Source of the DNA: an uncultured Chloroflexia bacterium
GTDB lineage: Bacteria > Chloroflexota > Limnocylindria > Limnocylindrales > CSP1-4
DNA: 64,000 bases
Direction: 5' to 3'
NCBI GenBank assembly: GCA_963706695.1
Contig: CAVPNC010000013.1
Location: forward strand, 16,348-80,347
Shown: piece after piece, positions 12,598 through 27,725 of the stretch
Layout: every line of letters begins with the position of its first letter
How positions within the stretch are numbered: position 1 is the first letter of the stretch
Made by a program: the position numbers and the translations under genes
Notes under the pieces: generated by a model
The model's database searches: none
What the model was told of the DNA's origin: nothing
The model's input: only the letters and a program-made list of their open reading frames with translations

Positions 12598-12957
12598 TTG
12601 ACCGCACCGCTCTGGTACGTGCTCGGCTTCGTCTTCGCGGGGTTCAGCTTCGTGTTCCTCACGATCGGTCTGGCCTGGTTCATCTCGCACCGGCATCGCG
12701 GTGACGAACACAAGGGCCTGCCGTATGAGTCTGGTATCGACACCTACGGCGATACGCGCGGGCGCTTCGGCCTCTCGTTCTACCTCTACGCCCTGCTCTT
12801 CGTGGCCTTCGACATCGAGGTCCTCTTCATCGCCCTCTGGGCGCTCGTCTTCGACGACGTCCTCACCGGAGGCTTCATGGGCATGCTCGTCTTCGTGGGC
12901 ATCATGGAGCTGTCGGTGCTGTACGCCGCCAGGAAAGGCCTGCTGACATGGAAGTGA
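12598..12957 (+). CDS. nuoA: NADH-quinone oxidoreductase subunit A
   Basis: Three TM helices, PYESGIDTYGDTR and FDIEVLFI. TTG start with a GAGGAA SD. First gene of the nuo cluster. Confidence 0.92.
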   Translation: MTAPLWYVLGFVFAGFSFVFLTIGLAWFISHRHRGDEHKGLPYESGIDTYGDTRGRFGLSFYLYALLFVAFDIEVLFIALWALVFDDVLTGGFMGMLVFVGIMELSVLYAARKGLLTWK

Positions 12958-13631
12958 AGCGACCCGGCGGCAAGGATGGCCTGACCACGACGAAGCACAA
13001 GCGCGGCGCCATCGTCCTGCCCAACACCACCTGGACGCCGGCGGACCCAGAGGCCTACAGCGGCGGCCAGCCCGCCACCATCGATCACCTCAAGGAGCTG
13101 GAGTTCGCGGACAAGGGTGACAACGGCCGCTGGGGTGCGCTCGACGTGGTGCCTGCCAATGCGGACCTGCTGCTCGATTACCTCCGCGCCAACAGCCTCT
13201 GGCCGCTGCTCTCGGGGCTCGCCTGCTGCGCCATGGAGATGATGTCGGCCGCGACCGTGGTCAACGACATGGACCGCTTCAACATGTTCCCCTTCCGTGC
13301 CAGCCCACGGCAGGCTGACGTGCTCATCGTGGCGGGCACGCTCACGACCAAGATGGCCGGGCCGCTCATCCGCCTGTGGGAGCAGATGCCGGAGCCCAAG
13401 TGGGTCGTGGCCATGGGTGACTGCACCTGTTCGGGTGGCCGCTACAAGCGCTCCTACGCCACCGTCGAGGGCATCGACCGCATCATGCCCGTCGACGTCT
13501 ACGTGCCTGGCTGTCCTCCCCGCCCGGAAGGACTCATCTACGGGATGATGAAGCTGCAGCAGCTCGTGCTCGAGCGACGCGGCCAGTGGAAGGACCGCAA
13601 GGTCGGCCCCACCGTCCCCGAGGGCGTCTGA
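12948..13631 (+). CDS. nuoB: NADH-quinone oxidoreductase subunit B (N2 cluster subunit), N-terminally extended
   Basis: [10 protein letters not shown] ... MGDCTCSGG ... VPGCPPRPE cluster N2 ligands. Carries a roughly 60-aa N-terminal extension. Confidence 0.95.
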
Positions 13632-13660
13632 TCAGAAGGAGTCGAACCACGGACACGCGC

Positions 13661-14290
13661 ATGCTGGCCCAGCTCGATGATCGCCTTGGTGAGCGTCTGG
13701 TCGTGCCTGCCGAAGGGATGGGTGACACCATCGAGCTGGTCGTCCGTCCAGCCGACCTGACGTTCGTCATGCGCACGCTGCGCGAGGATGGCGACCTGCG
13801 CTTCGAGCTGCTGGCTGACCTCTGCGGCGTGGACACCGGTGTGACCATGCAGGTCGTGTACCACCTCTGGTCCCCGCTCTCGGCCGACTGGGTGCGGGTC
13901 ATCGCCGACGGCCTGTCCCGTGATGACCCGCGCGTGCCCTCGGTCACGCAGCTGTGGCCGGGCGCGGAGTGGGCCGAGCGTGAGGCCTACGACATGTTCG
14001 GCATCGAGTTCGAGGGCAACCGCGACCTGCGCCGCATCTACATGCCGCCCGACTACCTGGCCTTCCCGCTGCGCAAGGACTTCGCCATGCCCGATGACGC
14101 CTCGCGCGGTCCGGGTGAAGGCATCCGCCACATGGAGACGCCGGTGACTCCGGCCGACATCCGGGAGCAGCCGGTCATCCGCACCAGCGCCGGTGCTGGT
14201 GCCCTCCTGGGGGCTGACGGGGAGCTGCTGGCTGTCGGCGCCGGAACGCTCGCGGATGAGGCGCTCGAGCGTGGCGAGGAGCCGGCATGA
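13661..14290 (+). CDS. nuoC: NADH-quinone oxidoreductase subunit C (30 kDa)
   Basis: DLCGVD, WPGAEWAEREAYDMFGIEFEGN. The ATG at 13661 is preferred; the track start at 13586 would overlap nuoB by 46 nt. Has a C-terminal Ala/Gly-rich tail. Confidence 0.9.
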   Translation: MLAQLDDRLGERLVVPAEGMGDTIELVVRPADLTFVMRTLREDGDLRFELLADLCGVDTGVTMQVVYHLWSPLSADWVRVIADGLSRDDPRVPSVTQLWPGAEWAEREAYDMFGIEFEGNRDLRRIYMPPDYLAFPLRKDFAMPDDASRGPGEGIRHMETPVTPADIREQPVIRTSAGAGALLGADGELLAVGAGTLADEALERGEEPA

Positions 14291-15510
14291 GCAACGATCG
14301 CGAGCAGGTCCGCTCCCTGGACGATCCCCACATCATGGTGCAGACGCCGGGCACCATCTACGACGCCATCCCGCCCCTGACCCCCCGCACCGAGCGTGAA
14401 GCCGAGTTCTACCAGCTCGAGGACGGGGAGATGTTCCTCAACCTCGGGCCGCAGCACCCCTCGACCCACGGCGTGCTGCGGGTGGTCATGAAGATCGACG
14501 GCGAGCGCATCGTCGACATCGACCCCGTCCTGGGCTACCTCCATCGCGGCGTCGAGAAGATCTGCGAGCACGGCGATTGGCACCACGCCATCAGCAACAC
14601 CGACCCGCTCGAGTACGCGGCCTCGATGTTCAGCGAATCGCTGCCGGTGCTGGCCGCCGAGCACCTGCTCGAGCTGGAGGTACCGCGCCGAGCCGACTAC
14701 ATCCGGGTGCTGGCCTGGGAGCTCAATCGCATCAGCAGCCACGCCCTCTTCATCGGCTGGCTGGCCCTGGACCTGGGTGGCATCACGCCCATCCTCTACG
14801 GCTTCGGCGAACGCGATGAGATCGTGGAGATGCTGGCCGCCCTCACGGGCCAGAAGCTGCTCTTCAACTACATGCGCATCGGCGGCGTCAACGGCGACCT
14901 CAACCACGAGTTCCTGAGCCGCCTCGGCGACTGGATGGGGCGCGCCGGTGCCCGCATCAACGACCAGGCCACGCTCATGAACGAGAACGAGATCTTCGTC
15001 AACCGCACCAAGGGCCTGGGCGTGATCGACCGCGAGATGGCGCTGCGCCTGGGCATGTCCGGGCCCCCCTTGCGAGCCACGGGTGTGCCCTATGACGTTC
15101 GTCGGGCACATCCCTACAGCGTCTACTCCGAGCTCGAGTTCGACATCCCCACGCGCACCGATGGCGACTCCTACGCCCGCTACCTGCTGCACATCGACGA
15201 GATCAAGCAGTCGATCCGCATCATCGACCAGGTGCTGCACGAGATGCCTGACGGCCCGGTCATGGCCAAGCTGCCACGCCTGCTGCGCATCCCGCCGGCC
15301 CGCGCCTTCGCGGCACTCGAGTCGCCGCGTGGCCAGTACGCGGCCTACGCCGTGAGCGACGGCTCGGACCAGCCCTTCCGCTTCCGCATCCACGACCCCT
15401 CGTTCTTCAACCTGCAGGCCGTGGGCCCGCTGTCGAAGGGCCAGGTGCTGGCTGACATCATGGCCATCATGGCCAGCCTCGACCCCATCATGGGCGGGAT
15501 CGACAAGTGA
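14287..15510 (+). CDS. nuoD: NADH-quinone oxidoreductase subunit D (49 kDa)
   Basis: NLGPQHPSTHGVLR, LGYLHRGVEK, SHALFIGW and C-terminal DPIMGGIDK. ATGA overlap with nuoC. Confidence 0.95.
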   Translation: MSNDREQVRSLDDPHIMVQTPGTIYDAIPPLTPRTEREAEFYQLEDGEMFLNLGPQHPSTHGVLRVVMKIDGERIVDIDPVLGYLHRGVEKICEHGDWHHAISNTDPLEYAASMFSESLPVLAAEHLLELEVPRRADYIRVLAWELNRISSHALFIGWLALDLGGITPILYGFGERDEIVEMLAALTGQKLLFNYMRIGGVNGDLNHEFLSRLGDWMGRAGARINDQATLMNENEIFVNRTKGLGVIDREMALRLGMSGPPLRATGVPYDVRRAHPYSVYSELEFDIPTRTDGDSYARYLLHIDEIKQSIRIIDQVLHEMPDGPVMAKLPRLLRIPPARAFAALESPRGQYAAYAVSDGSDQPFRFRIHDPSFFNLQAVGPLSKGQVLADIMAIMASLDPIMGGIDK

Positions 15511-16904
15511 GCGCCGCGACGGGCCCGGCACCCGCAGGCGTGTCGGCCCTGGGCAAGGTCGTGCTCGGGCTGATCGCCCTCATCGTGGTGGCCAGCGTCG
15601 GCTTCGCCCTGCTCTGGATCACCGGGCTCGGCCCCGACCTGACCGAGTGGGTCCTCGACACCGGCTCGGCCAATATCGAGATCCTGCGCTTCCTCGCGGC
15701 CGCCACGGGGGTGCTCCTGTTCACGGTGCCGGCGGCCTTCGTGATCATCTACATGGAGCTCAAGATCATCGCCCAGATGAACCTGCGCGTCGGTCCTGAC
15801 CGCACCGGGCCCTGGGGCTCGCTGGCCTCGCTGATGGCCGGCCTGAAGGTGCTCTCCAAGGAGGACTACACGCCCCGCGGTGTGGACGTGCCGGTCTACA
15901 CCCTGGCCCCGGCGGTCACGTTCCTGGCCTCGGTCCTGACGCTGCTGGTCATCCCCTTCGCGCCGGGCATGATCGGCTACGAGATGGAGCTGGGGCTGAT
16001 CTACTTCTTCGCAGCCTCGGGCATCGGCGTGGTAGGCCTGATGATGGCCGGCTGGTCCAGCTTCAACAAGTACTCGCTGCTGGGCGGCATCCGCGCCGCA
16101 GCCGCCGTCATCAGCTACGAGCTGCCGCTCATCCTGGGCACCTTCGGCGTGGTCCTGCTGGCGGGCACGCTGAACCTGGGCACGATCGTGGAGAACCAGG
16201 CGGGCTGGGTCTGGAACTGGTACGCCTTCCAGCAGCCGCTGGCCCTGATCATCTTCTTCATCGCCGCCACGGCCGAAGCCGGCCGCACGCCCTTCGACTA
16301 CACCGAGGCGGACTCGGAGCTGGTGGCCGGCTTCGCCACCGAGTACAGCGGCATGCGCTTCGGCTTCTTCTTCTTCGCCGAGTACGTCAACGTCTTCATC
16401 CTCAGCGCCCTCACGGTCACGCTCTTCCTGGGCGGGTACCACCTGGGCGTGGACATCGATCCGGTCCTCTCGTGGGTCGGCATCGAGACGCCGGTGCAGC
16501 TGTCGAACATCGACCCCGGCTCGCTGGGCGCGTGGCTGCTGGCCATCCCGCTGCTGGTGCCGCCCGTGCTCACGCTGGTGCTCGCCGGCCTGCTGTGGAT
16601 GCTCAAGTCGTCGTGGGGCTTCCTGAAGTCCCTGCTCGTGGGCTTCGTCCTGGCCAACCTGCTGGTCGGCGGCCTCATCAGCCTGTGGGCCATCTTCAGC
16701 TTCGAGGCCCTGCTGGGCGTGCTCGTCTTCTTCGGCAAGTCGTTCCTGCTGGTGGCCTTGTTCGTGATGATGCGGGCGACCTACCCCCGCGTGCGCATCG
16801 ACCAGATGATGAACTTCGCCTGGAAGTGGCTGATGCCCGCAGCCCTGCTCAACATCTTCGTCACCGCCGGCGCCATCATCATCATCACGGAGTACTTCTC
16901 GTGA
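15507..16904 (+). CDS. nuoH: NADH-quinone oxidoreductase subunit H (ND1), enlarged
   Basis: MELKIIAQMNLRVGPDRTGPWG, GFATEYSGMRF, FFAEYVN, RATYPRVRIDQ. At 465 aa it has an extra N-terminal TM and a roughly 70-aa hydrophobic insert before the last helices. Confidence 0.93.
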   Translation: MSAATGPAPAGVSALGKVVLGLIALIVVASVGFALLWITGLGPDLTEWVLDTGSANIEILRFLAAATGVLLFTVPAAFVIIYMELKIIAQMNLRVGPDRTGPWGSLASLMAGLKVLSKEDYTPRGVDVPVYTLAPAVTFLASVLTLLVIPFAPGMIGYEMELGLIYFFAASGIGVVGLMMAGWSSFNKYSLLGGIRAAAAVISYELPLILGTFGVVLLAGTLNLGTIVENQAGWVWNWYAFQQPLALIIFFIAATAEAGRTPFDYTEADSELVAGFATEYSGMRFGFFFFAEYVNVFILSALTVTLFLGGYHLGVDIDPVLSWVGIETPVQLSNIDPGSLGAWLLAIPLLVPPVLTLVLAGLLWMLKSSWGFLKSLLVGFVLANLLVGGLISLWAIFSFEALLGVLVFFGKSFLLVALFVMMRATYPRVRIDQMMNFAWKWLMPAALLNIFVTAGAIIIITEYFS

Positions 16905-17740
16905 GGACCGACCGCATCCCCGGCCTGGCCATCGTGAAGGGCATGCTCTTCGCCGTGCGCCAGGTCTTCCGTCCTGGGCTCACGGTGCGCTATCCGGAAG
17001 AGCAGAACCCCATCAGCCCGCGCCACCGCGGCCGGCTCCTCCTGGTCTACGACGAAGCGGGCACGCTCAAGTGCGAGACCTGCTTCCAGTGCGCGCAGGC
17101 CTGTCCCATCGAGTGTATCGACATGGGCGGCGTGGATACGCGCAACCGCTATCACGTGCACTGGGGCGCAGCCGAGCAGTACGCCGAGCGCCGCGAGGAG
17201 TCAGCCCTGCGCCGCTCCGGCCGACCCGTGCCCGATCGCACCTTCGATCCCTTCGAGACCATCGACCTGCGGCCGGTCGACGAGATCCTTGCTGCCGGCA
17301 AGTACAAGCCCAGCCGCTCGCTGGCCATGCTCGAAGCGGTGCAGGGCGCCTACGGCCACCTGCCCGTGGCGGCCCTGCAGCACATCGCCCACCAGACCGG
17401 TGCCAACTACGCCGAGCTCTATGGCATGGCCACCTCCTACCCGCACCTGCACTTCGAGCCGCCGGTCGGCCACGTCGTGCGCGTCTGCCGCTGTGCGCAG
17501 TGCACCCTGCTCGGCGGCGGCCGCGTGCTGGCAGCCTTCCGCGAGCATCTGAGCACCGACGTCGGCGGCGTGAGCCCCGATGGTGCGGTCCGCCTCGCGG
17601 TCACCGAGTGCGGCGGGTCCTCCCACGGCAGCGCGTACGTCGAGGTGGACGGGGAGCCGCTGCCCAAGTCCAGCCCCGAGGACGCGGCCACCATCGCCGC
17701 TGCGCTGCGTGCCACCGTGCCGCAGGGGGAGGCCGCATGA
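16901..17740 (+). CDS. fusion protein: NuoI N-terminal half (single 4Fe-4S motif) + NuoE-like thioredoxin-fold domain
   Basis: The GTG at 16901 overlaps the nuoH stop (GTGA). TVRYPEE..PRHRGR..KCETCFQCAQACPIECI is NuoI-like; SLAMLEAVQGAYGHLP...VCRCAQC...TECGGSSHG is NuoE-like. The 5' part of track ORF 16472.. is an out-of-frame read-through of nuoH. Confidence 0.8.
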   Translation: MRTDRIPGLAIVKGMLFAVRQVFRPGLTVRYPEEQNPISPRHRGRLLLVYDEAGTLKCETCFQCAQACPIECIDMGGVDTRNRYHVHWGAAEQYAERREESALRRSGRPVPDRTFDPFETIDLRPVDEILAAGKYKPSRSLAMLEAVQGAYGHLPVAALQHIAHQTGANYAELYGMATSYPHLHFEPPVGHVVRVCRCAQCTLLGGGRVLAAFREHLSTDVGGVSPDGAVRLAVTECGGSSHGSAYVEVDGEPLPKSSPEDAATIAAALRATVPQGEAA

Positions 17741-19059
17741 GCCTGCCCGTGCTGGCCGGGGCCAAGGACTGGCCGCAGGTGCTGCTGGCCCGAGCCGCGG
17801 ACGCGGCCGTCGCCGACATCGCCGAGGCGGAGGCCGGCGGGGCCTGGACGGCCTTCAGGCGCGCCACCGCTGAGCTGTCGCCTGAAGCGGTCATCCACAC
17901 CGTCACCGAGTCGGGCCTGCGCGGGCTCGGCGGAGCCGGCTATGCCACCGGCGCCAAGTGGCGCGACTGCGTCTCCCAGGCCGATCCGGTCCACTACGTC
18001 GTGGCCAACGGCTTCGAGGCCGATCCAGGCGCCCAGCTCGACCGCTCGCTCATGGAACGGGATCCGCACCTGGTGGTCGAGGGCGTGGCCATCACCGCCT
18101 GGGCGGTCGGAGCCGAGACCGCCATCATCGCCGTCTCCTCCGCTGCCCCCGTGGCCGCGGAGCGCCTGCGCACCGCGATCGACGAAGCCGTCGAGGCCGG
18201 CTACATCGGCCGCTCCGCCGACGGCCGCAGCCTCCAGCTCGAGGTCCGCGAGGTCACCGGCTCCTTCGTGGTCGGCGAGGAGACGGTGCTGCTGCGAGCC
18301 CTCGAGGGCAAGCGCGCCCAACCGGACCAGCGCCCGCCGTTCCCCAGCCGCGAAGGCCTGTGGGGCAAGCCCACGGTGGTCAACAACGTCAAGACGCTCG
18401 CAGCCGTGCCCTGGATCGTGGCTCACGGCGCCGGCGCCTATGCCTCGCTGGGCCTGCCCGAAGCCCCCGGCACCACGCTCGTCCAGCTGGGTGGCGCGGT
18501 CAAGAAGCCCGGTGTCGTGGAGGTGCCCTTCGGGACCACGCTGCGGCAGATCCTCGACGGCCCCGGCGGCAAGACCACGGGCTCGCTCAAGGCCGTGCTG
18601 GTGGGTGGCCCGAGCGGCGGCTTCCTGCCGCCCGACGCACTCGATACGCCCCTGACCTACGAGGCCCTGCGGGAGGCGGGGGCGCTGGCCGGCTCGGGTA
18701 CGCTGCTGGCCCTCGACGAGAGCGCCTGCATCGTGGACGTGGCCACGCTCATGACGCGCTATCTCAATGACAACGCCTGCGGCAAGACCATCCCCTGTCG
18801 CATCGGAACCCGGCGCATGGCCGAGCTGGGCAGCGCCATCTGCTCGGGGCACGTGCGGCCCACTGACGCGGCGCTGCTGGGTGACCTCGCCGCGGACGTG
18901 CGAGCAGCGGCCCTCTGCGGCCTGGAAGCTGACGCTGCCAACCCTCTCCTGAGCGGGATGCGATACTTCGCGCCTGAGTTCGAAGCCCACACCGAGCGTG
19001 GTGAATGCCCGGCCGGTGTGTGCCAACCCATTCGTCTAGCCGGTGCCGTGCTGTCATGA
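17737..19059 (+). CDS. nuoF: NuoF-like (51 kDa) subunit, divergent cofactor motifs
   Basis: ATGA overlap at 17737. GLRGLGGAGYATGAKW, GEETVLLRALEGKRAQP, PPFPSREGLWGKPTVVNNV and the cluster region NACGKTIPCRIG...ALCGLE. Confidence 0.8.
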   Translation: MSLPVLAGAKDWPQVLLARAADAAVADIAEAEAGGAWTAFRRATAELSPEAVIHTVTESGLRGLGGAGYATGAKWRDCVSQADPVHYVVANGFEADPGAQLDRSLMERDPHLVVEGVAITAWAVGAETAIIAVSSAAPVAAERLRTAIDEAVEAGYIGRSADGRSLQLEVREVTGSFVVGEETVLLRALEGKRAQPDQRPPFPSREGLWGKPTVVNNVKTLAAVPWIVAHGAGAYASLGLPEAPGTTLVQLGGAVKKPGVVEVPFGTTLRQILDGPGGKTTGSLKAVLVGGPSGGFLPPDALDTPLTYEALREAGALAGSGTLLALDESACIVDVATLMTRYLNDNACGKTIPCRIGTRRMAELGSAICSGHVRPTDAALLGDLAADVRAAALCGLEADAANPLLSGMRYFAPEFEAHTERGECPAGVCQPIRLAGAVLS

Positions 19060-21668
19060 CCGACACGCTCCCTGAGATCATCCAGCAGCAGCCGGGCCCG
19101 TCACCCGACGAGGCCACCGAGCGGCTGCTCACGACCCAGTCGCCGCAGCGGCCGCAGACATCCGCGGCCTTCGAGATCGAGATCGACGGCCGCACCCTGA
19201 CCGCCCGCGAGGGCCAGACCATCCTCGAGGTCTGCCGCGACGCCGGCATCGAGGTGCCCACGCTCTGCTACGAGCCCAAGCTGCCCGGCTTCGGTGCCTG
19301 CCGCATGTGCGTGGTCGAGGTCGAGGGTGAGGACACTCCGCCCATCTCGTGCTCGCGCGAGGCTGAAGCGGGCATGGTCGTGCAGACGCAGACCCAGCGG
19401 CTGCGGGAGATCCGCAAGACCAACCTGGAGCTGATCTTCAGCGACCACAACGCCTACTGCCTGCCGCCCTGCCAGAACAAGTGCCCCAGCCACATCGACA
19501 TCCCCGGCTTCCTCAAGGCCAACACCGAGGGTGACTTCGTCGAGTCCACGCGCATCTTCAAGCGCACCATCCCCTTCCCCTCGACGCTCGGGCGGGTGTG
19601 CCCAGCGCCGTGCGAGGAGCACTGTCGCCGCGACGAGGTCGAGGAAGCCATCGCCATCCGCGACAGCCACCGCTACGCCGGCGACCAGGTGCTCAAGGCC
19701 CAGGCTGAGGGCGTCAAGCCGCCCCTGCCCTTCGACCAGCAGCCGTCCACGGGCAAGCGCGTGGCCGTCATCGGCTCCGGGCCTACGGGCATGTCAGCTG
19801 CCTACTACCTCTCGCTCAGCGGCCACGAGGTCACCGTCTACGAACGCGACCCGGAGGCCGGCGGCATGCTGCGCTACGGCATCCCCGAGTACCGCCTGCC
19901 CAAGGAACGTGTCCTCGAGCCCGAGTACGAGGCCGTGTGGGAGCTCGGCGCCAGGCTCGTGACGGGCGCGGAGCTGGGCGTGGACTTCACCATCGACGAC
20001 CTCCAGAACCAGGGCTTCGATGCGGTGCTGGTGGCCATCGGCTGCTACGACACCAACAAGCTGGGCATCCCGGGCGAGGACGCGGACGGGGTCATCGACG
20101 GCCTCGAATACCTCCGCGTCGCCACGCTCGGACTGCCCTACCCCGAGCACAAGGGCAAGCGCGTCGTGGTCATCGGCGGCGGCTTCACCTCCATGGACTG
20201 CTCGCGCACCTCGGTGCGCCAGGGCTGCACGGAGACGACCCTGGTCTACCGCCGCGACATGAAGGACATGCCCGCTGCGGACGAGGTGCACGAGATGCTC
20301 GAAGAGGGCGCGCGCGCCATCTTCCAGGCCTCGCCCACGCGCGTCGTCACGGACAAGGACGACAAGGTCACCGGGGTCGAGTTCCAGCGCATGGCACTGG
20401 GCGAGCCGGACGCCTCCGGCCGGCGCCGACCACAGCCGGTCGAGGGCACCGAGTTCATCATCGACTGCGACCGCGTGCTCCTGGCCATCGGCCAGGGTCC
20501 CAAGCTGGACTGGCTTGAGCACGGCGCCGAGGGCATCGAGAAGACCAAGCGCTGGCGACTGGATGCGGACGCGGTCACCTTCGGTACCGGGCGCGCAGGC
20601 GTCTTCGGGGCCGGGGACGTGCGCACGGGCGCTGCCACGGTGGTGGAGGCCATCGCCGAGGGGCGACGCGCGAGCTACGCCATCGATGCCTATCTGCAGG
20701 GCCAGGACCTCGACGAGATCCGCACGCGCCAGACGCTCGCGGAGCCGCAGCCCGAGTTCCTCTCCATCGTGCCCTACACCAGCGAGGTCAAGGAGCCGCG
20801 CATCCGCCTGAAGGCCATGCCGGCCGAGGAGCGCAACAGCTCGTATGTCGAGTACGAGATCCCTTACACCGCCGAAGAGGCCATGTCCGAGTCAGCACGC
20901 TGCCTCCAGTGCACCTGCGAGGCCATCGGCTATTGCGACCTCCGTCGGCAGGGCATCGAGTACGGCACCACGCTGCAGACGCTTGAGCCCAAGCGCACCG
21001 GCCTCTCCTTCCGCAGCGTGAGCGAGAACCGCTTCACCGGCACCAACCACGACTACATCCGCGACGACAGCCACTCCTTCATCCTGCGCGAACCCTCGCG
21101 CTGCATCGACTGCGGCCGCTGCGCCAACGTCTGCCGCGAGGTCGTGGGTGCGGCCTGCTACGACTTCATGCGCACCGGCTTCGACACGCTCGTGACGACG
21201 CCGCTGGACATGAGCCTCAACACCACGCCCTGCGTCTCCTGTGGCCGCTGTGCCGAGACCTGTCCCACGGGCGCGCTCATGCCCAAGCCACGCGTGCTCG
21301 AGAAGTACGAGGTGGACGAGTCTCGCTGCATCCTCTGCGGCATCTGCGTCGATGCCTGCCCCTACGACGCGCTCCGCTGCGGACCGGACTTCGAGCTCGC
21401 ACACGAGTCGCGCGCGGAGCCGCAGATCGACCTCATCGCCCTCGCTGCGATGGACCGTGACTCGGAGATGAGCTACGTCCGCCGCGAACGCGACTGGCTC
21501 AGCCGCGCCCAGGCTGATGGTCGCGACATCCCGCACGAGCGGCTGCTGCCCATGCTGCCGCCGGGACTGGCCGGGAGCAGCGGCAACGGGAACGGTAGAA
21601 CCAGCACCGTCGCTGACTCCACCACCGGCGCAGCCGGGGGTGGCGCAGCGTCGGTCCACCACAAGTAG
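19056..21668 (+). CDS. chimeric Fe-S flavoprotein: NuoG-type [2Fe-2S] + inserted GltD-like NAD(P)H/FAD module + NuoG-type 4Fe-4S motifs + NuoI-like C-terminus; no molybdopterin-like domain
   Basis: ATGA overlap at 19056. LCYEPKLPGFGACRMCVVEV..ISCS; CLPPCQNKCPSHIDIP..GRVCPAPCEEHC; VIGSGPTGMSAAYYL; VVIGGGFTSMDCSRT; GVFGAGDV; CIDCGRCANVC; CVSCGRCAETCP; CILCGICVDACPYDALRCGPDFELAHE. Confidence 0.8.
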   Translation: MTDTLPEIIQQQPGPSPDEATERLLTTQSPQRPQTSAAFEIEIDGRTLTAREGQTILEVCRDAGIEVPTLCYEPKLPGFGACRMCVVEVEGEDTPPISCSREAEAGMVVQTQTQRLREIRKTNLELIFSDHNAYCLPPCQNKCPSHIDIPGFLKANTEGDFVESTRIFKRTIPFPSTLGRVCPAPCEEHCRRDEVEEAIAIRDSHRYAGDQVLKAQAEGVKPPLPFDQQPSTGKRVAVIGSGPTGMSAAYYLSLSGHEVTVYERDPEAGGMLRYGIPEYRLPKERVLEPEYEAVWELGARLVTGAELGVDFTIDDLQNQGFDAVLVAIGCYDTNKLGIPGEDADGVIDGLEYLRVATLGLPYPEHKGKRVVVIGGGFTSMDCSRTSVRQGCTETTLVYRRDMKDMPAADEVHEMLEEGARAIFQASPTRVVTDKDDKVTGVEFQRMALGEPDASGRRRPQPVEGTEFIIDCDRVLLAIGQGPKLDWLEHGAEGIEKTKRWRLDADAVTFGTGRAGVFGAGDVRTGAATVVEAIAEGRRASYAIDAYLQGQDLDEIRTRQTLAEPQPEFLSIVPYTSEVKEPRIRLKAMPAEERNSSYVEYEIPYTAEEAMSESARCLQCTCEAIGYCDLRRQGIEYGTTLQTLEPKRTGLSFRSVSENRFTGTNHDYIRDDSHSFILREPSRCIDCGRCANVCREVVGAACYDFMRTGFDTLVTTPLDMSLNTTPCVSCGRCAETCPTGALMPKPRVLEKYEVDESRCILCGICVDACPYDALRCGPDFELAHESRAEPQIDLIALAAMDRDSEMSYVRRERDWLSRAQADGRDIPHERLLPMLPPGLAGSSGNGNGRTSTVADSTTGAAGGGAASVHHK

Positions 21669-21692: not shown

Positions 21693-22274
21693 GTGGAGCT
21701 ACCGGGGACGGTCCCGTATCTCGACTGGCGCTGGGATGACCTGATCTTCCTGCTGCTGGCCGGCGTGATGCTGGGCTCCGCGCTGCTCGTCGTGCTCGGC
21801 CGGGACATCATCCGGTCCGCGCTCTGGCTCATCCTGTCCTTCGCCGCCCTCGCGGGCGTGTACGGCCTGCTCGGCAGCGCCTTCCTGGCCATCAGCCAGG
21901 TGCTCACCTACGTGGGTGCCATCGCGGTGCTCATCCTCTTCGCGGTCATGATCACGCAGTCCAAGCGCGGTCCCAGCGAGCTCGTCTTCAACCGCCAGTG
22001 GTGGGCCGGCGCCATCGCCGCCATCGTGCTGGTCGGGCTCATGATCATCAGCATCCTGCTCACGGAGTGGGACGTGACCAGCGAGGTGCAGGTGGCCGAG
22101 GCGCGCGAGATCGCGCTGACCATCTACCAGGAGTACATGTTCGCCTTCCTCGCCCTGGGCGTGCTGCTGCTGGCCGGCGTCATCGGCGGGCTCTACCTGG
22201 CCAAGCGTGACGACGACATGCCCGAGACCAACATCCAGGCCCGCACCATGCCTGACGAGGAGGAGGGCGCGTGA
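21693..22274 (+). CDS. nuoJ: NADH-quinone oxidoreductase subunit J (ND6)
   Basis: Five TM helices, AISQVLTYVGAIAVLILFAVM. Position between the input genes and nuoK. GTG start. Confidence 0.88.
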   Translation: MELPGTVPYLDWRWDDLIFLLLAGVMLGSALLVVLGRDIIRSALWLILSFAALAGVYGLLGSAFLAISQVLTYVGAIAVLILFAVMITQSKRGPSELVFNRQWWAGAIAAIVLVGLMIISILLTEWDVTSEVQVAEAREIALTIYQEYMFAFLALGVLLLAGVIGGLYLAKRDDDMPETNIQARTMPDEEEGA

Positions 22275-22582
22275 GCCAGTCGCTCGAGGCCTACCTCATC
22301 CTCGCGGTCCTGCTCTTCGGCATCGGCGCCTTCGGCTTCCTCGCCAAGCGCAACGCCATCGCCATGCTCATGTCCATCGAGCTCATGCTCAACTCGGTCA
22401 ACCTGGCCATCATCGCCTTCGGGGCCTTCACGCCGGAGTTCGCGGCGCAGGCGTCGACCATCGCCCTCTTCGTCATCGCGGTGGCTGCCGGTGAGGCCAC
22501 CGTGGGCCTGGCCATCGTCATCGCCATCTACCGCAACCGCAGGACGCCGCTCGTCGACGAGTACGCGTCGATGAAGGAGTAG
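22271..22582 (+). CDS. nuoK: NADH-quinone oxidoreductase subunit K (ND4L)
   Basis: 103 aa, three TM helices, SIELMLNSVNLAIIAF and AAGEATVGLAIVIAIYR. GTGA overlap with nuoJ. Confidence 0.93.
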   Translation: MSQSLEAYLILAVLLFGIGAFGFLAKRNAIAMLMSIELMLNSVNLAIIAFGAFTPEFAAQASTIALFVIAVAAGEATVGLAIVIAIYRNRRTPLVDEYASMKE

Positions 22583-22588
22583 GCGGCG

Positions 22589-24646
22589 ATGGACCTGGTC
22601 TTCAACGCGGAGGAGGGCGGCCTGCTCTTCATCCCGCCCGAGCCCGCGGGCGAGCTCGAGACGTTCCTCATCCTGCTCGTGCTGGCCCTGCCCCTCGCCG
22701 GCTTCCTGCTCACCGGTCTGGTCGGCCGTCGCTTGTCACGGCCGTGGGTCATCTCGGTCGCAGCCATCGTGGCCGCCACGCTGGTGGCTACCTACCTCGC
22801 CTTCGGGCAGCTGTCGGGCGCCTACGGCGAACATGGCATCCAGCACATGTTCTACACCTGGATCGGCGTCGCCGACCTGCAGGTGGAGTTCGGCTTCGTG
22901 CTCGACAACCTCTCGGCGCTGATGCTCATCGTGGTCACCTGGATCGGGGCCCTGGTGCACATCTACAGCATCGGCTACATGGAGCACGACCCGTCGAAGT
23001 GGCGCTTCTTCGCGTACCTCAACCTGTTCATGTTCTCGATGCTGCTGCTGGTGCTCGCGAGCAGCTACCTGGTGGTCTTCGGCGCGTGGGAGCTGGTGGG
23101 CCTGTCCTCCTACCTGCTCATCGGCTTCTGGTACACCAAGCGAGCGCCGGCGCTGGCCTCCAAGAAGGCCTTCCTCGTCAACCGCGTCGCCGACCACGGC
23201 TTCCTCGTCGGCATCATCGGCGTCTTCCTGATCACCGGAACGATGGACATCTTCACGTCCTTCGGCGCCTGGAACACGGCCACGGTGGACCCGCTCGTAC
23301 GCAACACCGTGGCCTTGCTGCTGTTCGTGGGTGCGGCCGGCAAGAGCGCCCAGTTCCCCTTCCACGTCTGGCTGCCGGACGCGATGGAGGGCCCCACGCC
23401 GGTTTCCGCGCTCATCCATGCCGCGACCATGGTCAACGCCGGTGTCTACTTCATCGCCCGCACCACGCCCATCTTCGCCTCCGCGCCGGAGGCGCTGCTG
23501 GTGGTGGCGCTGCTGGGCACGTTCACGGCAGTCCTGGCCGCGACCATCGCGCTGACCCAGAAGGACATCAAGCGCGTCCTGGCCTACTCCACCCTGAGCC
23601 AGCTGGGCTACATGTTCATGGCCCTGGGTGTGGGTGCCTGGCTGGCGGCCATCTTCCACCTCATGGCCCACGGCTTCACCAAGGGCCTGCTCTTCCTCGG
23701 CTCCGGCTCGGTCATCCACGCGATGCACGAGGAGCAGGACATGACCAAGATGGGCGGGCTCTGGCGCAAGATCCCGTGGACCCACGCGACCTTCCTCATC
23801 GGCGCCCTGTCGCTCGCGGGGATCCCGCTCTTCGCCGGCTTCTTCTCGAAGGACCTGATCCTCGACGAGGCCTTCGTCCTCGGCTGGTGGCCGGTGTTCA
23901 TCGTGGGCATCATCGTGGCCGCGCTGACCGGCTTCTACATGTTCCGGCTCATGGGCCTGACCTTCTACGGCAAGAGCCGCGTGGACCCGGAGGTCGAGCC
24001 CAAGATCCATGAATCACCGCCCTCGATGGTGGCCCCGCTGGTCCTGCTCTCCATCCCGACCATGTTCCTGGGCCTGGTCATCGGGACCGGACTCTTCGTC
24101 AACGACAGTGGCAAGGTCGCCTTCGACCCGGGCGGACCGGTGCTCGGGATCTCGCCCATCAAGAAGTGGCTGGAACCGGTCTTCCATCCGGGCGAGGTCA
24201 TCCTCGGCATCACCTTCCCCGAGTACGAGTTCTTCGGCCTCAACGGCACGTTGCTGGTCATCTCGGTGGCGATGGCAGCCCTGGGCATCGGCGCGGCCAT
24301 CTGGCTCTTCGGTGTCTTCAACTCGCGCGCTCGCCTCGAGACCGTGGACAGCCTGACCCAGCGCAACCGGGTCAGCCGCTTCCTCTACACCGCGTCGCTC
24401 AACAAGTGGTACTTCGATGACCTCAACCACTACCTCTTCTACGTCATCGGCGGGCGCGTGGCCAACGGCGTGATGTGGTTCGACGTCAGGATCATCGACG
24501 GAGTGGTCAACGGCGTCGGCGCCGTGACCCAGCGCATCGGTGACGACGTTCGCCAGATCCAGACGGGCCGCGTGCAGAACTACGCTCTCGGCATCGCCAT
24601 CGGCCTCATCGTCATCGCCACGCTCTTCATGCTGATGGCCCGCTGA
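22589..24646 (+). CDS. nuoL: NADH-quinone oxidoreductase subunit L (ND5)
   Basis: WELVGLSSYLLIGFWY, GKSAQFPFHVWLPDAMEGPTPVSALIHAATMV and a long C-terminal lateral-helix region. 685 aa. Confidence 0.95.
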   Translation: MDLVFNAEEGGLLFIPPEPAGELETFLILLVLALPLAGFLLTGLVGRRLSRPWVISVAAIVAATLVATYLAFGQLSGAYGEHGIQHMFYTWIGVADLQVEFGFVLDNLSALMLIVVTWIGALVHIYSIGYMEHDPSKWRFFAYLNLFMFSMLLLVLASSYLVVFGAWELVGLSSYLLIGFWYTKRAPALASKKAFLVNRVADHGFLVGIIGVFLITGTMDIFTSFGAWNTATVDPLVRNTVALLLFVGAAGKSAQFPFHVWLPDAMEGPTPVSALIHAATMVNAGVYFIARTTPIFASAPEALLVVALLGTFTAVLAATIALTQKDIKRVLAYSTLSQLGYMFMALGVGAWLAAIFHLMAHGFTKGLLFLGSGSVIHAMHEEQDMTKMGGLWRKIPWTHATFLIGALSLAGIPLFAGFFSKDLILDEAFVLGWWPVFIVGIIVAALTGFYMFRLMGLTFYGKSRVDPEVEPKIHESPPSMVAPLVLLSIPTMFLGLVIGTGLFVNDSGKVAFDPGGPVLGISPIKKWLEPVFHPGEVILGITFPEYEFFGLNGTLLVISVAMAALGIGAAIWLFGVFNSRARLETVDSLTQRNRVSRFLYTASLNKWYFDDLNHYLFYVIGGRVANGVMWFDVRIIDGVVNGVGAVTQRIGDDVRQIQTGRVQNYALGIAIGLIVIATLFMLMAR

Positions 24647-26199
24647 TGACCGACTTCCTCGAACGTCCCGACCTGCTCACGCTGCTGATCCTCACGCCGC
24701 TCATCGGCGCGCTGATCCTGCTCTTCGTGCCCGGAAGGCGTGAGGACATCCATCGCTGGGGCGCCTTCGCCATCTCGCTGGTGGCCGTGGGCATCTCGCT
24801 GCTCATCGCGCTCAGCTTCGACAACGAGCGCGAGGGCTTCCAGCTCGTGCAGGAGGTCGACTGGATCGGCTTCTTCGGCATCCAGTACAAGGTCGGCGTG
24901 GACGGCATCAGCCTGGTCCTGGTGCTGCTCACGACGCTCCTGACGTCGATCAGCATCCTGGCCTCGTTCGGTCCCATCAAGACGCGCGTGAAGGAATACA
25001 TGATCGCCTTCCTCGTGCTGGAGGTGGGCATGCTGGGCGTGTTCCTGAGCCTTGACCTCTTCCTCTTCTACGTCTTCTGGGAAGTGGTGCTCGTGCCCAT
25101 GTACCTGATCATCGGTATCTGGGGCGGGGCCAACCGCATCTACGCCACCATCAAGTTCGTCATCTACACGCTGGTGGGCTCGCTCCTGATGCTGGTCGCC
25201 ATCCTGGCCATCGCGTGGACGTACGCACAGGAGACCGGCTCGTGGGTGGGTGCCTTCGACTACACCACGCTGGTCGAGTTCGGCTTCGACCCGACCCTGC
25301 AGTTCTGGGCCTTCCTGGGCTTCTTCCTGGCCTTCGCCATCAAGATCCCGATGTGGCCCCTGCACACGTGGCTGCCCGATGCCCACACCGAAGCCCCCAC
25401 GGCCGGTTCGGTCATCCTCGCGGGTGTCCTGCTCAAGCTCGGCGGGTATGGGCTCATCCGCATGAACCTGCCGCTCTTCCCCGACGCCACGCAGGACCTG
25501 GCCCCGTTCGTCATCGCGCTCTCGATCGTGGGCATGCTCTACGGCGCCATCGTGGCCATCCGTCAGACCGACCTCAAACGCCTCATCGCCTACTCGTCGG
25601 TCAGCCACATGGGCTTCGTCACGCTGGGCATCTTCGTGCTCAACGAACAGGGCGTGCAGGGCGCCATCTTCCAGATGGTCGGCCACGGCGTCATCACGGG
25701 TGCGCTCTTCCTCCTCGTGGGCGTCATCTACGAGCGCACCCACGACCGCACCATCGCCAAGATGGGTGGCCTGGGCCAGCGCGTGCCGGTCTTCGCCACG
25801 CTGATGGTCTTCTTCAGCCTGGCCTCGGCGGGCCTGCCTGGCCTGGCCGGCTTCGTGGGGGAGTTCCTGGTCATCCTGGGCGCCGTGACGTGGGAGCCCT
25901 GGGTCGGCTACGTGGCCGCCTTCACCATCATCTTCGCGGCGGTCTACCTGCTCTACATGGTCCAGAACATCATCATGGGCGACGTCACCGACTTCCTCAA
26001 GGGCCTGGGTGACAAGCTCACCGACGTCAGCCGCGTCGAGGTCGCCACGCTGGCGCCGCTGGTGCTGCTAACGGTGGTGCTGGGCCTCTTCCCGGCGCTC
26101 GTGCTGGACATCACGGCCATGCCGGTCGACCTCATCCTCGAGGTCGTGGCCAACGCCGCTGATGCCGCTGCCGAGTCGACCGCGGGGCTGCTGCCATGA
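24646..26199 (+). CDS. nuoM: NADH-quinone oxidoreductase subunit M (ND4)
   Basis: FYVFWEVVLVPMYLIIGIWGG, KIPMWPLHTWLPDAHTEAPTAGSVILAGVLLKLGGYG. Confidence 0.95.
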   Translation: MTDFLERPDLLTLLILTPLIGALILLFVPGRREDIHRWGAFAISLVAVGISLLIALSFDNEREGFQLVQEVDWIGFFGIQYKVGVDGISLVLVLLTTLLTSISILASFGPIKTRVKEYMIAFLVLEVGMLGVFLSLDLFLFYVFWEVVLVPMYLIIGIWGGANRIYATIKFVIYTLVGSLLMLVAILAIAWTYAQETGSWVGAFDYTTLVEFGFDPTLQFWAFLGFFLAFAIKIPMWPLHTWLPDAHTEAPTAGSVILAGVLLKLGGYGLIRMNLPLFPDATQDLAPFVIALSIVGMLYGAIVAIRQTDLKRLIAYSSVSHMGFVTLGIFVLNEQGVQGAIFQMVGHGVITGALFLLVGVIYERTHDRTIAKMGGLGQRVPVFATLMVFFSLASAGLPGLAGFVGEFLVILGAVTWEPWVGYVAAFTIIFAAVYLLYMVQNIIMGDVTDFLKGLGDKLTDVSRVEVATLAPLVLLTVVLGLFPALVLDITAMPVDLILEVVANAADAAAESTAGLLP

Positions 26200-27725
26200 G
26201 CGACGACGTGCTGACCCTGCTGCCGTTCGTGCTCGTGGTGGCCACGGCCCTGCTGGTCATCCTGGTGGATCTCTTCTGGCCCCGGCGCAACGAGCTGGTC
26301 ATGGCGGTCGGGCTGGGCGGTCTCAGCGCGGCCCTCGTGGCCACGCTGCTCATCGGGCCCATGCCCTGGGACTTCGCCAGCCTGAGCGAGGCTTCGTCCT
26401 TCGGTGACCCCGCGCTCTACACGCGAGACCTGCTGACGTCGCTGCTCGACTTCACCCTCATCGCCATCGGCATCCTGACGCTGCTCTTCGCCCCCGACTA
26501 CCTCACCCCGCGCAAGCTGCCCCTGGCCGAGTTCACCGCCACACTCATCTTCGCCGTCAGCGGCGGCATGCTCATCGCCGGCGGCCAGGACATGCTGGTG
26601 CTCTTCATCGGGCTCGAGCTGCTGGTGCTGCCGGGCTACCTGCTGGCGGGCTTCGCCAAGCGTGACGGGCTCTCCACCGAGGGCGCCATCAAGTACTTCC
26701 TGCTGGGCTCCTTCTCCAGCGCCATCCTGCTGTTCGGCCTGGCCTTCGTCATCGGCTACACCGGCAACACCCAGCTCGCCGGCATCGCCGAGGCGCTCTC
26801 GGGCGTGCTCGACGGGAACGCGGCCCTGCCGTTGGCGCTGGCCATGGGCCTGGCCCTGCTGGCGGTGGGCGTGCTGTTCAAGATCGCCGCGGTGCCCTTC
26901 CACTACTGGACGCCGGACGCCTACCAGGGCTCGCCCACGCCTGTCACCGGCTACCTCTCGGTCGGTCCCAAGATCGCCGCCTTCGCGCTCATCCTGCGCA
27001 TCTTCGTGGAGGCCCTGGGGCCACTCCGCGGCGAGTGGGCCCTCATCGTGGGCGTGCTCGCCGGCCTGACCATGACCGTGGGCAACCTGGCGGCCCTGGG
27101 CCAGGACAACATCAAGCGCATGTTGGCCTACTCGTCCATCGCCCACACCGGCTACATCATGGTCGGTCTCGTGGTCTTCGCCACGGCTGAGAACCGTGAC
27201 GCAGCCGCGGCTGGCGTGCAAGCCGTGCTCTTCTACGCGGTGGCCTACGCCTTCATGAACCTCGGTGCCTTCGCGGTCGTGGCCGCGCTGCAGCGGCGCC
27301 CCGGCATCACCAGCCAGATCTCCACCTTCGCTGGCCTCGGCTATCGCGCCCCGGTGCTGGCCCTGGCCATGACCGTCTTCCTGCTCTCCCTGGTGGGCAT
27401 CCCGCCGCTGGCCGGCTTCTTCGCCAAGATGACCGTGGTGCTGTCGGCCCTCGAGGTCGGCGGGCCCATGACCCTGCTGGCGGTGCTGATGATGCTGAAC
27501 GCAGCCATGGCCGCCTTCTACTACCTGCGCGTGGTCGTCTACATGTACATGCGCAAGCCGGAGGGCGCCGCCGCCGAGGTGAGCGTGGGCACGGTCACCC
27601 GCGTCGGGCTCATCGTGGCCGCGGCTGCAGTCATCGTGATCGGCCTCGTGCCACCGGTGACCGGCGCCATCCTGGACTGGACGGAGGCGGCCGCGCAGAG
27701 CCTCGTGCTCCTCATCGACTTCTAG
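26196..27725 (+). CDS. nuoN: NADH-quinone oxidoreductase subunit N (ND2)
   Basis: GLELLVLPGYLL, KIAAVPFHYWTPDAYQGSPTPVTGYLS. Last gene of the operon; ATGA overlap with nuoM. Confidence 0.95.
   Translation: MSDDVLTLLPFVLVVATALLVILVDLFWPRRNELVMAVGLGGLSAALVATLLIGPMPWDFASLSEASSFGDPALYTRDLLTSLLDFTLIAIGILTLLFAPDYLTPRKLPLAEFTATLIFAVSGGMLIAGGQDMLVLFIGLELLVLPGYLLAGFAKRDGLSTEGAIKYFLLGSFSSAILLFGLAFVIGYTGNTQLAGIAEALSGVLDGNAALPLALAMGLALLAVGVLFKIAAVPFHYWTPDAYQGSPTPVTGYLSVGPKIAAFALILRIFVEALGPLRGEWALIVGVLAGLTMTVGNLAALGQDNIKRMLAYSSIAHTGYIMVGLVVFATAENRDAAAAGVQAVLFYAVAYAFMNLGAFAVVAALQRRPGITSQISTFAGLGYRAPVLALAMTVFLLSLVGIPPLAGFFAKMTVVLSALEVGGPMTLLAVLMMLNAAMAAFYYLRVVVYMYMRKPEGAAAEVSVGTVTRVGLIVAAAAVIVIGLVPPVTGAILDWTEAAAQSLVLLIDF

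Follow-up and report, generated by a model that had tools for sequence, protein, structure and literature searches.

We analysed a 64,000-nucleotide stretch of DNA (hereafter the window) from an uncultured Chloroflexia bacterium (Limnocylindria; Limnocylindrales; CSP1-4), spanning positions 16,348-80,347 of the forward strand of contig CAVPNC010000013.1 (assembly GCA_963706695.1), with a focus on an open reading frame (ORF) that lies within an operon for respiratory complex I. The product of this ORF, which we refer to as IE (16901-17740), joins the N-terminal half of NuoI to a NuoE/BfuC-like domain, and it is followed by genes for a NuoF/BfuB-like subunit (F; 17737-19059) and an NfnA/StnC-like subunit (G; 19056-21668), the second of which carries the C-terminal half of NuoI. 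IE is thus one visible edge of a larger feature, a NuoI split around an NfnABC-type module. The features of the split subunit are listed here in window coordinates (aa, amino acids).

16901..17740, + strand: IE, the NuoI N-terminal half fused to a NuoE/BfuC-like domain, 279 aa (profile matches, database relatives)
16901..17170, + strand: NuoI N-terminal half (aa 1-90), with the N-terminal helix, the YPEE/RHRGR region and the first 4Fe-4S motif (NF004536, TIGR01971, TYKY residues 22-87)
17072..17107, + strand: first ferredoxin motif CETCFQCAQACP (C58, C61, C64, C68, P69), invariant in 79 orthologues
17126..17236, + strand: linker GGVDTRNRYHVHWGAAEQYAERREESALRRSGRPVPD (aa 76-112), nearly invariant (column conservation 0.81-0.96)
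17258..17725, + strand: NuoE/BfuC-type thioredoxin-like ferredoxin domain (aa 120-275; PF01257, predicted local distance difference test (pLDDT), Foldseek)
21291..21455, + strand: NuoI C-terminal half (aa 746-800 of G), with the second motif at 21327-21362 and GPDFELA (TIGR01971, TYKY residues 98-143)

Both parts of IE were recognised by profile models (NCBIfam NF004536, 180 positions, and TIGR01971, 121 positions, for NuoI; Pfam PF01257 for the NuoE-type domain). Residues 10-82 matched positions 12-84 of NF004536 (expectation value (E) 5.5e-16, 58.4 bits) and positions 1-66 of TIGR01971 (E 3.6e-13, 49.2 bits), scores that fall below the respective NuoI cut-offs of 212 and 113.05 bits. Residues 127-269 matched positions 2-144 of the 145 in PF01257, 2Fe-2S_thioredx (E 4.5e-23, 82.1 bits against a gathering score of 24.8), and this part too is under the NCBIfam equivalog cut-off for NuoE (best 63.3 bits against 141, NF005722). 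An earlier interpretation made from the letters of the DNA (hereafter the sequence-only reading) had described half a NuoI fused to a NuoE-like domain and had set out this profile check beforehand; the profiles support both halves and revealed no second Cys motif, no full set of NuoE ligands and no frameshift, and the length that it gave, 280 aa, is to be corrected to 279 aa plus the stop codon. It was right that IE has a single CxxCxxCxxxCP motif (C58, C61, C64, C68-P69), and its view that IE alone is unable to complete a 2x[4Fe-4S] fold agrees with this count and with an AlphaFold2 model of IE alone (55-sequence alignment), in which aa 24-119 have a pLDDT below 50 while the block means of the NuoE domain are ~70-93. 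The low confidence of aa 24-119 is consistent with a half-fold in need of a partner, although it is not proof of one. In a Foldseek search with the model the top match was NfnC (9bp5_C), with HydC and NuoE also among the top matches.

The linker, in which AlphaFold2 predicts a helix at aa 95-105 with low pLDDT, ranks among the most conserved stretches of IE. Within it, RYHVHW is similar to KYEVDE, the strand ahead of the second motif in G, as though the junction strand had been duplicated. More than 120 database proteins have the same length of 279 aa and 72-100% identity to IE, and those with a named source are from Chloroflexota. Relatives of IE are annotated in their source records as "NADH:ubiquinone oxidoreductase subunit E" or "NAD(P)H-dependent oxidoreductase subunit E", with the NuoI half left unannotated. 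One NCBI record, MEZ5126045.1, has 237 aa against 253 aa in its cluster mates, which suggests that its start was called too far downstream.

The second CxxCxxCxxxCP motif lies in G (C758-P769), where aa 746-789 match TIGR01971 NuoI positions 71-114 (49.2 bits against the cut-off of 113.05). We joined IE 1-92 to G 739-870, and the composite aligned collinearly with NuoI/TYKY, with a best E of 9.3e-19 to residues 23-143 of 7ar7_I; a profile built from 20 such joined orthologues mapped the halves to TYKY residues 22-87 and 98-143 and left ~10 loop residues uncovered. The break in NuoI therefore falls in a loop of about ten residues between the two halves of the ferredoxin fold. The sequence-only reading had pointed to the C-terminus of the 19056-21668 product as the carrier of the complementary motif, and this has held, with the halves lying back to back on solved NuoI/TYKY structures. 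In the DNA the halves are separated by ~4.1 kb that encode the NuoE-like domain, the NuoF-like gene and most of the NuoG/GltD-like gene, and all eight Cys of the two NuoI motifs are invariant across 57-79 orthologues. A cluster in a 2x[4Fe-4S] ferredoxin is coordinated by three Cys of one motif together with the Cys that precedes the Pro in the other; if the halves pair, N6a and N6b would each draw ligands from the two polypeptides.

The remaining genes of the operon are as follows.

12598..12957, + strand: nuoA (ORF; Oxidored_q4 at this position in relatives; syntenic in 80 loci)
12948..13631, + strand: nuoB, carrier of cluster N2, with a long N-terminal extension (Pfam Oxidored_q6 on aa 93-203)
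13586..14290, + strand: nuoC (Pfam Complex1_30kDa)
14287..15510, + strand: nuoD, the quinone-site subunit (Pfam Complex1_49kDa, E 7.9e-84)
15507..16904, + strand: nuoH, 465 aa, unusually long (Pfam NADHdh in two stretches)
21693..22274, + strand: nuoJ (Pfam Oxidored_q3)
22271..22582, + strand: nuoK (ORF and synteny; Oxidored_q2 in relatives)
22589..24646, + strand: nuoL (ORF, paralogous with nuoM and nuoN; Proton_antipo_N and Proton_antipo_M in relatives)
24646..26199, + strand: nuoM (ORF, paralogy with nuoL and nuoN, domains of relatives)
26196..27725, + strand: nuoN (paralogy with nuoL and nuoM, domains of relatives)

The core membrane and Q-module subunits A, B, C, D, H, J, K, L, M and N are therefore encoded together, and the translation of NuoB retains the N2 cysteine motifs, including PGCPP. 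Overlaps of 4 nucleotides join nuoH to IE (GTGA, in which the GTG start codon of IE overlaps the nuoH stop), IE to F (ATGA, in which the IE stop overlaps the ATG of the next gene) and F to G (ATGA). No intact nuoI, no other NuoI-like sequence and no second NuoE-, NuoF- or NuoG-like sequence was found in the 64-kb window. The two-stretch NADHdh match in the 465-aa NuoH implies that the protein is extended at its N-terminus and carries an insertion past about aa 320, and ~90 residues precede the Oxidored_q6 domain of NuoB; these extra segments might be in contact with the unusual peripheral module.

To place the locus in a broader context, we scanned species-representative genomes and recovered at least 508 stretches that encode a relative of IE; statements on loci refer to the best 80, and columns were counted in orthologue sets of 79 (IE), 71 (F) and 57 (G) sequences. 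The best 80 loci are all from metagenome-assembled genomes (MAGs) of Candidatus Limnocylindria/Limnocylindrales-type Chloroflexota, including CSP1-4 and one closed chromosome, and every one that is long enough to show it has the order nuoA-B-C-D-H-IE-F-G-J-K-L-M. Median identities to the window proteins are as follows.

IE aa 41-112 (NuoI N-terminal half and linker): 88.9%
NuoI C-terminal half in G: 88.3%
NuoB: 82%
G (whole): 81%
NuoD: 80%
F: 60-63%
NuoE-like domain of IE: 54%

The identical split of NuoI, at the same model positions, was found in three further lineages, so that at least two bacterial phyla share the layout. The first of these (L086, 5024-13637) is a second clade with Limnocylindria-labelled members, in which IE is 36-39% identical; the order in L086 is nuoA-B-C-D-H-IE-F-G followed by unrelated genes, with nuoJ-N not adjacent. 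Another is the P0214 lineage (L082). The third, a Thermoleophilia-type family (L087) of more than 1192 proteins at E <= 1e-20 in which two members are named Thermoleophilia, has the operon nuoA-B-C-D-H-IE-F-G-J-K-L-M-N (1-20762; GCA_040769125.1, JAXGLO010000001.1); here F is a full-length BfuB of 636 aa with the extra cluster domains of B2-B5 type, and the NuoE ligands are canonical. The Thermoleophilia-type operon combines the split NuoI with a bifurcating-type module and could encode a complex I that also handles ferredoxin. In addition, a 2-oxoacid:ferredoxin oxidoreductase (pyruvate:ferredoxin oxidoreductase) gene cluster (L084, 97-7726; also L085) contains the cassette in a soluble form. 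Its genes encode a PorD-like protein, PorA, a truncated NuoI-like half fused to NuoE, a 634-aa BfuB, a 1060-aa protein and PorB; the match of the truncated NuoI N-terminal half begins at model position 37, and the 1060-aa protein consists of an NfnA-like part followed by ...FRVDESRCIMCRECVGVCPVDAL, which matches the NuoI C-terminal half. This arrangement suggests a portable split-ferredoxin docking device. Domain identities, synteny, conservation and the complementarity of the NuoI halves at the level of sequence are direct observations in these data.

Between the NuoI halves lies a module of NfnABC/Stn (Bfu) type that includes an NADPH/FAD domain (reduced nicotinamide adenine dinucleotide phosphate; flavin adenine dinucleotide), a point that was absent from the sequence-only reading. 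The solved structures closest to the NuoE part of IE, to F and to G are three chains of the same enzymes, namely Caldicellulosiruptor (Csac) NfnABC (9BOV/9BP5), Sporomusa Stn (8OH5/8OH9) and Thermococcus (Tsib) NfnABC (9N5U), and for the window proteins nothing in the PDB was closer than NfnABC/Stn/HydABC and NuoI/TYKY chains. The features of F and G are listed below.

17737..19059, + strand: F, NuoF/BfuB-like subunit for flavin mononucleotide (FMN), 440 aa, without the N- and C-terminal cluster domains of bifurcating BfuB (Pfam)
18778..18798, + strand: cluster N3/B1 motif CGKTIPC (F aa 348-354), second Cys replaced by Thr (family counts)
19056..21668, + strand: G, 870 aa, with a 2Fe-2S domain, a GltD-type FAD/NADPH domain, 4Fe-4S domains and the NuoI C-terminal half (PDB, Pfam, NCBIfam)
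19446..20735, + strand: GltD/NfnB-like domain with two 4Fe-4S clusters (A6, A7), FAD site and NADPH site (GGG...YRR) (Fer4_20, Pyr_redox_2)
21102..21266, + strand: two-cluster ferredoxin domain, A2 and A4 (C683...C693, C726...C736-P) (Fer4_Nqo3, Fer4_7; invariant in the family)

G aligned to Csac NfnA (9bov_A) with an E of 3.7e-169, aa 40-767 pairing with NfnA 5-698, and to 8oh5_C with an E of 6e-146. All cluster Cys, the FAD GxGxxG and the NADPH GGG...YRR motifs are invariant in the 57 orthologues. The motifs for A3, A2 and A4 follow the GltD insertion in this order, and the NuoI C-terminal half then stands where NfnA and StnC have a formate-dehydrogenase-like domain, with the A4 motif ending 21 residues before the NuoI motif. 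An invariant histidine, His205 (19668-19670), occupies the position of Lys170, the fourth ligand of A7 in Csac NfnA, with the other ligands all kept. Lys170 has been described as an unusual ligand next to the FAD that is conserved in all Bfu members studied (PMC11829005). The possibility that canonical NuoE, NuoF and NuoG had simply moved into nuoI was rejected, as IE, F and G are nearer to NfnABC/Stn/HydABC chains and G has the GltD insertion and no NuoG molybdopterin-like domain.

Pfam domains in F are limited to Complex1_51K, SLBB and NADH_4Fe-4S. The best PDB matches of F were NfnB, HydB and StnB over their residues ~116-526, with an E of 2e-111 for NfnB compared to 8.6e-81 for the best complex I NuoF; as the alignment is limited to NfnB residues 116-526, F is without the domains that carry B2-B5. 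Schut et al. 2022 (PMC9304861) describe non-bifurcating homologues as lacking B2-B5. With respect to Bfu membership, G has the combination that marks BfuA (2Fe-2S, 4Fe-4S and an inserted NADP(H)/FAD domain), while F lacks the additional B2-B5 (N-terminal domain and C-terminal 2x[4Fe-4S]) that mark BfuB and that are present in the Thermoleophilia-type F. The second position of the N3/B1 motif is T in 58, C in 9 and S in 4 of the 71 F orthologues, and the other three Cys are kept in 69 of the 71; the corresponding motif reads CGKAVPC in L086 of the second clade, CGRCIPG in L082 and canonical CGKCVPC in the Thermoleophilia type. Loss of the middle Cys in CxxCxxC is a classic [3Fe-4S] signature, and B1 in F may, judging from this motif, be a [3Fe-4S] cluster or have one ligand other than Cys. 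Elsewhere in F, the family motif ANGFEADPG replaces CNADEGDPG (18007-18030, aa 91-98), and the F of the window has rare variants in the FMN/NADH loop (17914-17961, aa 60-75), namely L64, where 68 of 71 orthologues have Arg, and A70, where 61 of 71 have Pro. The NADH contacts described for Csac NfnB comprise Phe159, Lys164, Glu274, Phe294 and Gly-rich loops, and their counterparts are kept in F as Y69, K74, E181/182, the Phe of PPFP and the Gly-rich loops. We did not adopt the view of F as a dead enzyme, since these NfnB-type NADH/FMN contacts persist, but we retain it among the rival explanations below. An intact B1-FMN-C1 flavobicluster with canonical ligands is not present, given CGKTIPC at B1 and the missing fourth canonical Cys at C1.

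The metal site of the NuoE-like domain involves two short segments of IE.

17486..17503, + strand: CRCAQC, with the canonical C196 and C201 and the extra C198, all three in 79/79 orthologues
17609..17623, + strand: CGGSS, with C237 (third canonical ligand) and S241 at the missing fourth Cys (column counts)

The canonical NuoE set (C-x4-C ... C-x3-C) is broken in IE, with Ser at the fourth position. The sequence-only reading had noted the first Cys pair (C196-x4-C201), which is indeed there, and had taken the ligand set to be incomplete with Ser as one of the four [2Fe-2S] ligands. The fourth canonical Cys is absent (C237-GGS-S241), as it said. Yet the site has four Cys that are present in 79/79 orthologues (C196, C198, C201 and C237) in a C-x-C-x2-C...C arrangement, and it is better described as rearranged, the significance of C198 having been overlooked. 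Ser as the replacement ligand found no support: position 241 is S in 57, N in 11, A in 4 and P in 3 of the 79 orthologues and is never Cys, and we rejected Ser241 as a cluster ligand because this position varies while Cys198 is invariant. Among 378 full-length fusion proteins, the residues at 196/198/201/237/241 read CGCCC (the canonical pattern) in 130, CCCC[S/A/T] in 119, CCC[D/E/N/T/S]G in 118 and CCCCC in a single intermediate that carries both. The third of these patterns is illustrated by the L086 clade, which keeps CxCxxC and has Asp, Glu, Asn, Thr or Ser for the third canonical Cys and Gly for the fourth. Every fusion protein in which a canonical ligand is missing has Cys198, and all canonical ones have Gly at this position; this correlation is suggestive and, given that it stems from few independent events, is not to be read as statistical. 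The NuoE-like site would be either a ligand-swapped [2Fe-2S] cluster with Cys198 as a ligand or a Zn site. Ligand swapping and Cys-to-Ser variants have reportedly been described for the [2Fe-2S] ferredoxin of Clostridium pasteurianum. Zn was demonstrated at the thioredoxin-like B5 site of Csac NfnB, which has three Cys and one Glu (PMC11829005). As in these altered thioredoxin-like [2Fe-2S] sites, a canonical Cys is gone in IE and a nearby residue or another metal would take over; unlike them, the change in IE is natural and fixed class-wide, with a Cys added two residues past the first ligand.

All of the results presented here are computational, and from them we infer the pairing of the halves, the occupancy of the clusters, the substrates and the direction of electron flow. 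We consider it likely that IE and G form a split NuoI that encloses an NfnABC/Stn-type module and is rebuilt in an assembled, NAD(P)H-oxidising complex I. The enzyme would most likely be a proton-pumping NAD(P)H:quinone oxidoreductase in which N6a and N6b are each bound by two polypeptides. In this scenario, an ancestral 11-subunit-type operon (A-B-C-D-H-I-J-K-L-M-N) would have gained a three-gene NfnABC/Stn-type (Bfu) cassette inside nuoI, at the loop that connects the two 4Fe-4S motifs. NuoI's N-terminal half would then have been fused to the NuoE/BfuC-like subunit to give IE, and the C-terminal half to the NfnA/StnC-like end to give G, replacing the formate-dehydrogenase-like domain. Together the halves of IE and G would rebuild the 2x[4Fe-4S] fold, with one polypeptide supplying three Cys and the other the fourth for each of N6a and N6b. 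The NuoG C-terminal domain forms the interface in canonical complex I; it is absent here, and the rebuilt NuoI may substitute for it, acting as both wire and clamp that docks the dehydrogenase module on NuoB, NuoC, NuoD and NuoH.

Electrons from NADPH would enter at the GltD-like FAD and pass through A7, A6, A3, A2 and A4 to N6a/N6b, N2 and quinone, driving the NuoL/M/N pumps. In soluble NfnABC the path is FAD-A7-A6-A3-A2-A1-[B1-FMN-C1], with A2-A4-A5 as a dead-end side branch (PMC11829005), and A4 is proposed as the electron port of Type 1 and Type 2 Bfu enzymes (PMC9304861). We propose the route through A4 because of this suggested role as a port and because the A4 motif ends so close to the NuoI motif in G. 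NADH would probably enter through the FMN of F and continue via B1(N3) and A1 to A2, and the NuoE-like domain would lie off the main electron path. Since F is without the ferredoxin-reducing cluster domains (B3/B4), neither ferredoxin reduction nor bifurcation is expected of the Limnocylindria form. The faster evolution and altered ligands of F and of the NuoE domain suggest that it is the NADPH branch that is under constraint. More broadly, and more tentatively, since we put its chances a little below even, the genes may represent a portable input cassette, [half-ferredoxin-BfuC] [BfuB] [NfnA-half-ferredoxin], that docks on different enzymes by rebuilding a two-cluster ferredoxin from two subunits and that in nuoI would constitute an independently evolved N-module of complex I, and hence a second way to attach a dehydrogenase to its core. 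The Limnocylindria pump would then oxidise NADPH besides or instead of NADH, and the Thermoleophilia type with its full, bifurcating-type BfuB may link NAD(P)H, ferredoxin and quinone within a single pump.

Several considerations weigh against a rebuilt NuoI in an NAD(P)H-oxidising pump. IE carries the NuoI N-terminal half and NuoE on one chain, yet the two would be far apart if the complex is built like canonical complex I, and the case for pairing of the halves ends at their complementarity in sequence. What points to NADPH as the substrate of G is motif conservation only, and the host organisms are known only as MAGs. Furthermore, evolution is much faster in F and the NuoE domain than in G, and with the three-Cys N3/B1 and NGFEADPG the NADH branch may be weak or lost. 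This last point leads to an alternative that we regard as unlikely, in which the split-NuoI complex is the same, the NuoE- and NuoF-like parts are mainly scaffold with FMN, B1 and C1 degenerate or lost, and NADPH at the GltD-type FAD is the only significant input. It draws on the gradient of identity from 54% in the NuoE domain and 60-63% in F to 81% in G and ~88% in the NuoI halves, on the second N3/B1 Cys being mostly gone (T58, S4 and C9 of 71), on the broken set of canonical NuoE ligands and on the L64 and A70 variants of the window F; lineages with a trimmed F have each lost an N3/B1 Cys as well (the second to Ala in L086, the third to Gly in L082), and neither retains the acidic pair of the NADE motif. 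A mere scaffold, however, fits poorly with the FMN/NADH Gly-rich loops, K74, W75, GEET, the PPFP Phe and the aromatic residue at 69, all kept as in the NADH contacts of Csac NfnB, with three N3 Cys at 69/71, compatible with a [3Fe-4S] cluster or one non-Cys ligand, and with the four invariant Cys of the NuoE domain. Operation mainly in reverse, with the proton-motive force driving electrons from quinol via N2, N6 and A4 to FAD and FMN to make NADPH (and NADH), appears less likely still. Complex I is reversible, which speaks for it, as does the perfect conservation of the NADPH site. The GltD/NfnA domain physiologically reduces NADP+ in Nfn and Stn, according to the available text of PMC7483475 and PMC10482914. 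Against reverse operation, nothing in the window points to lithotrophy that needs reverse electron flow, and the operon is apparently the sole one for complex I in the 64 kb, so that a role in respiration is expected; direction is, in any case, a matter that sequence cannot settle.

The remaining alternatives dispense with a rebuilt NuoI altogether. If the halves do not pair, IE, F and G would be a soluble Nfn-like enzyme encoded inside the nuo operon, with half-ferredoxins that dimerise or stay cluster-free and with NuoI absent or encoded elsewhere. The related cassette with both half-motifs beside pyruvate:ferredoxin oxidoreductase genes (L084) shows that a split ferredoxin does not by itself require a membrane partner, and in the second clade (L086) nuoJ-N are not adjacent. 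We nevertheless hold this to be very improbable: IE retains the NuoI-specific, non-ferredoxin N-terminal region (model positions 12-56), of which the soluble version has a truncated form, the GPDFELA tail specific to NuoI is present in G, and IE occupies exactly the position of nuoI in 11-subunit-type operons with a translational-coupling overlap with nuoH. Moreover, neither the operon nor the 64-kb window has an intact nuoI, and a complex I core that lacks N6a/N6b is left with no wire leading to N2. The architecture is unusual enough, and a few database fragments are frameshifted (P0124, P0159, P0204 and P0205), that one might also suspect a frameshifted, mis-assembled or pseudogenised nuoI/nuoE region. 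Such an artefact has a negligible chance of being correct in the face of the more than 120 full-length 279-aa homologues at 72-100% identity, motif residues that are invariant in 79 orthologues from independent MAGs, and the same architecture in several deep lineages of two phyla; a frameshift or pseudogene was ruled out by this conservation together with the clean 4-nucleotide gene junctions.

Complex I is among the most studied bioenergetic enzymes, in which NuoI counts as one invariant core subunit and NADH as the substrate in bacteria. If the rebuilt, two-subunit NuoI is real, the modular evolution of complex I would be retold to include independent recruitment of an N-module onto an 11-subunit-type core, electrons of NADPH would gain a route to the quinone pool, and the re-use of Bfu-type modules would be seen differently. 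Because annotation names IE a subunit E, automated pathway reconstructions may miss NuoI and score it as absent. Judging from titles and abstracts, Limnocylindria turn up repeatedly in soil and freshwater studies. Our searches of the searchable literature gave no account of a split NuoI, of a NuoI-NuoE fusion or of a complex I that contains GltD, and a 2026 genomics paper on Limnocylindria/CSP1-4 makes no mention of complex I or nuo.

Compared to NfnABC and StnABC (PMC11829005, PMC10482914, PMC12018979), G has the same 2Fe-2S domain, inserted GltD-type FAD/NADPH domain and clusters A2, A3, A4, A6 and A7, but it lacks the formate-dehydrogenase-like C-terminal domain and A5, ends in a NuoI half and has His205 in place of Lys170. 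Likewise, F is without the N- and C-terminal domains (B2-B5) that ferredoxin reduction needs, the ligands of B1 and C1 are altered, and the module of the window is encoded inside the operon of a membrane complex. In this last respect the locus resembles the predicted Nuo-Bfu of Geobacter and others and the Mbh-Bfu of Dehalococcoides, in which, according to PMC9304861, a Bfu module replaces or joins the electron-input module of a complex-I-like proton pump, the Bfu genes lie mid-cluster and one Mbh-Bfu subunit has an extra flavin site. The same source places these enzymes in other lineages (Deferribacteres, Proteobacteria, Planctomycetes, Nitrospirae and Dehalococcoides) and presents Nuo-Bfu as a 14-subunit A-N enzyme in which BfuABC with a bifurcating-type BfuB replaces NuoEFG, with no split of NuoI in the text available. 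Lastly, IE and G together have what characterises NuoI/Nqo9/TYKY (NDUFS8), namely the N-terminal region, both CxxCxxCxxxCP motifs and the GP(D/N)FE(L/F)A tail, and the split NuoI shares with it the operon position between nuoH and nuoJ and, presumably, the wiring of the dehydrogenase module to N2. The difference is that the fold is here distributed over two polypeptides, each fragment scoring under every NCBIfam NuoI cut-off, and that its clusters would be ligated by two subunits.

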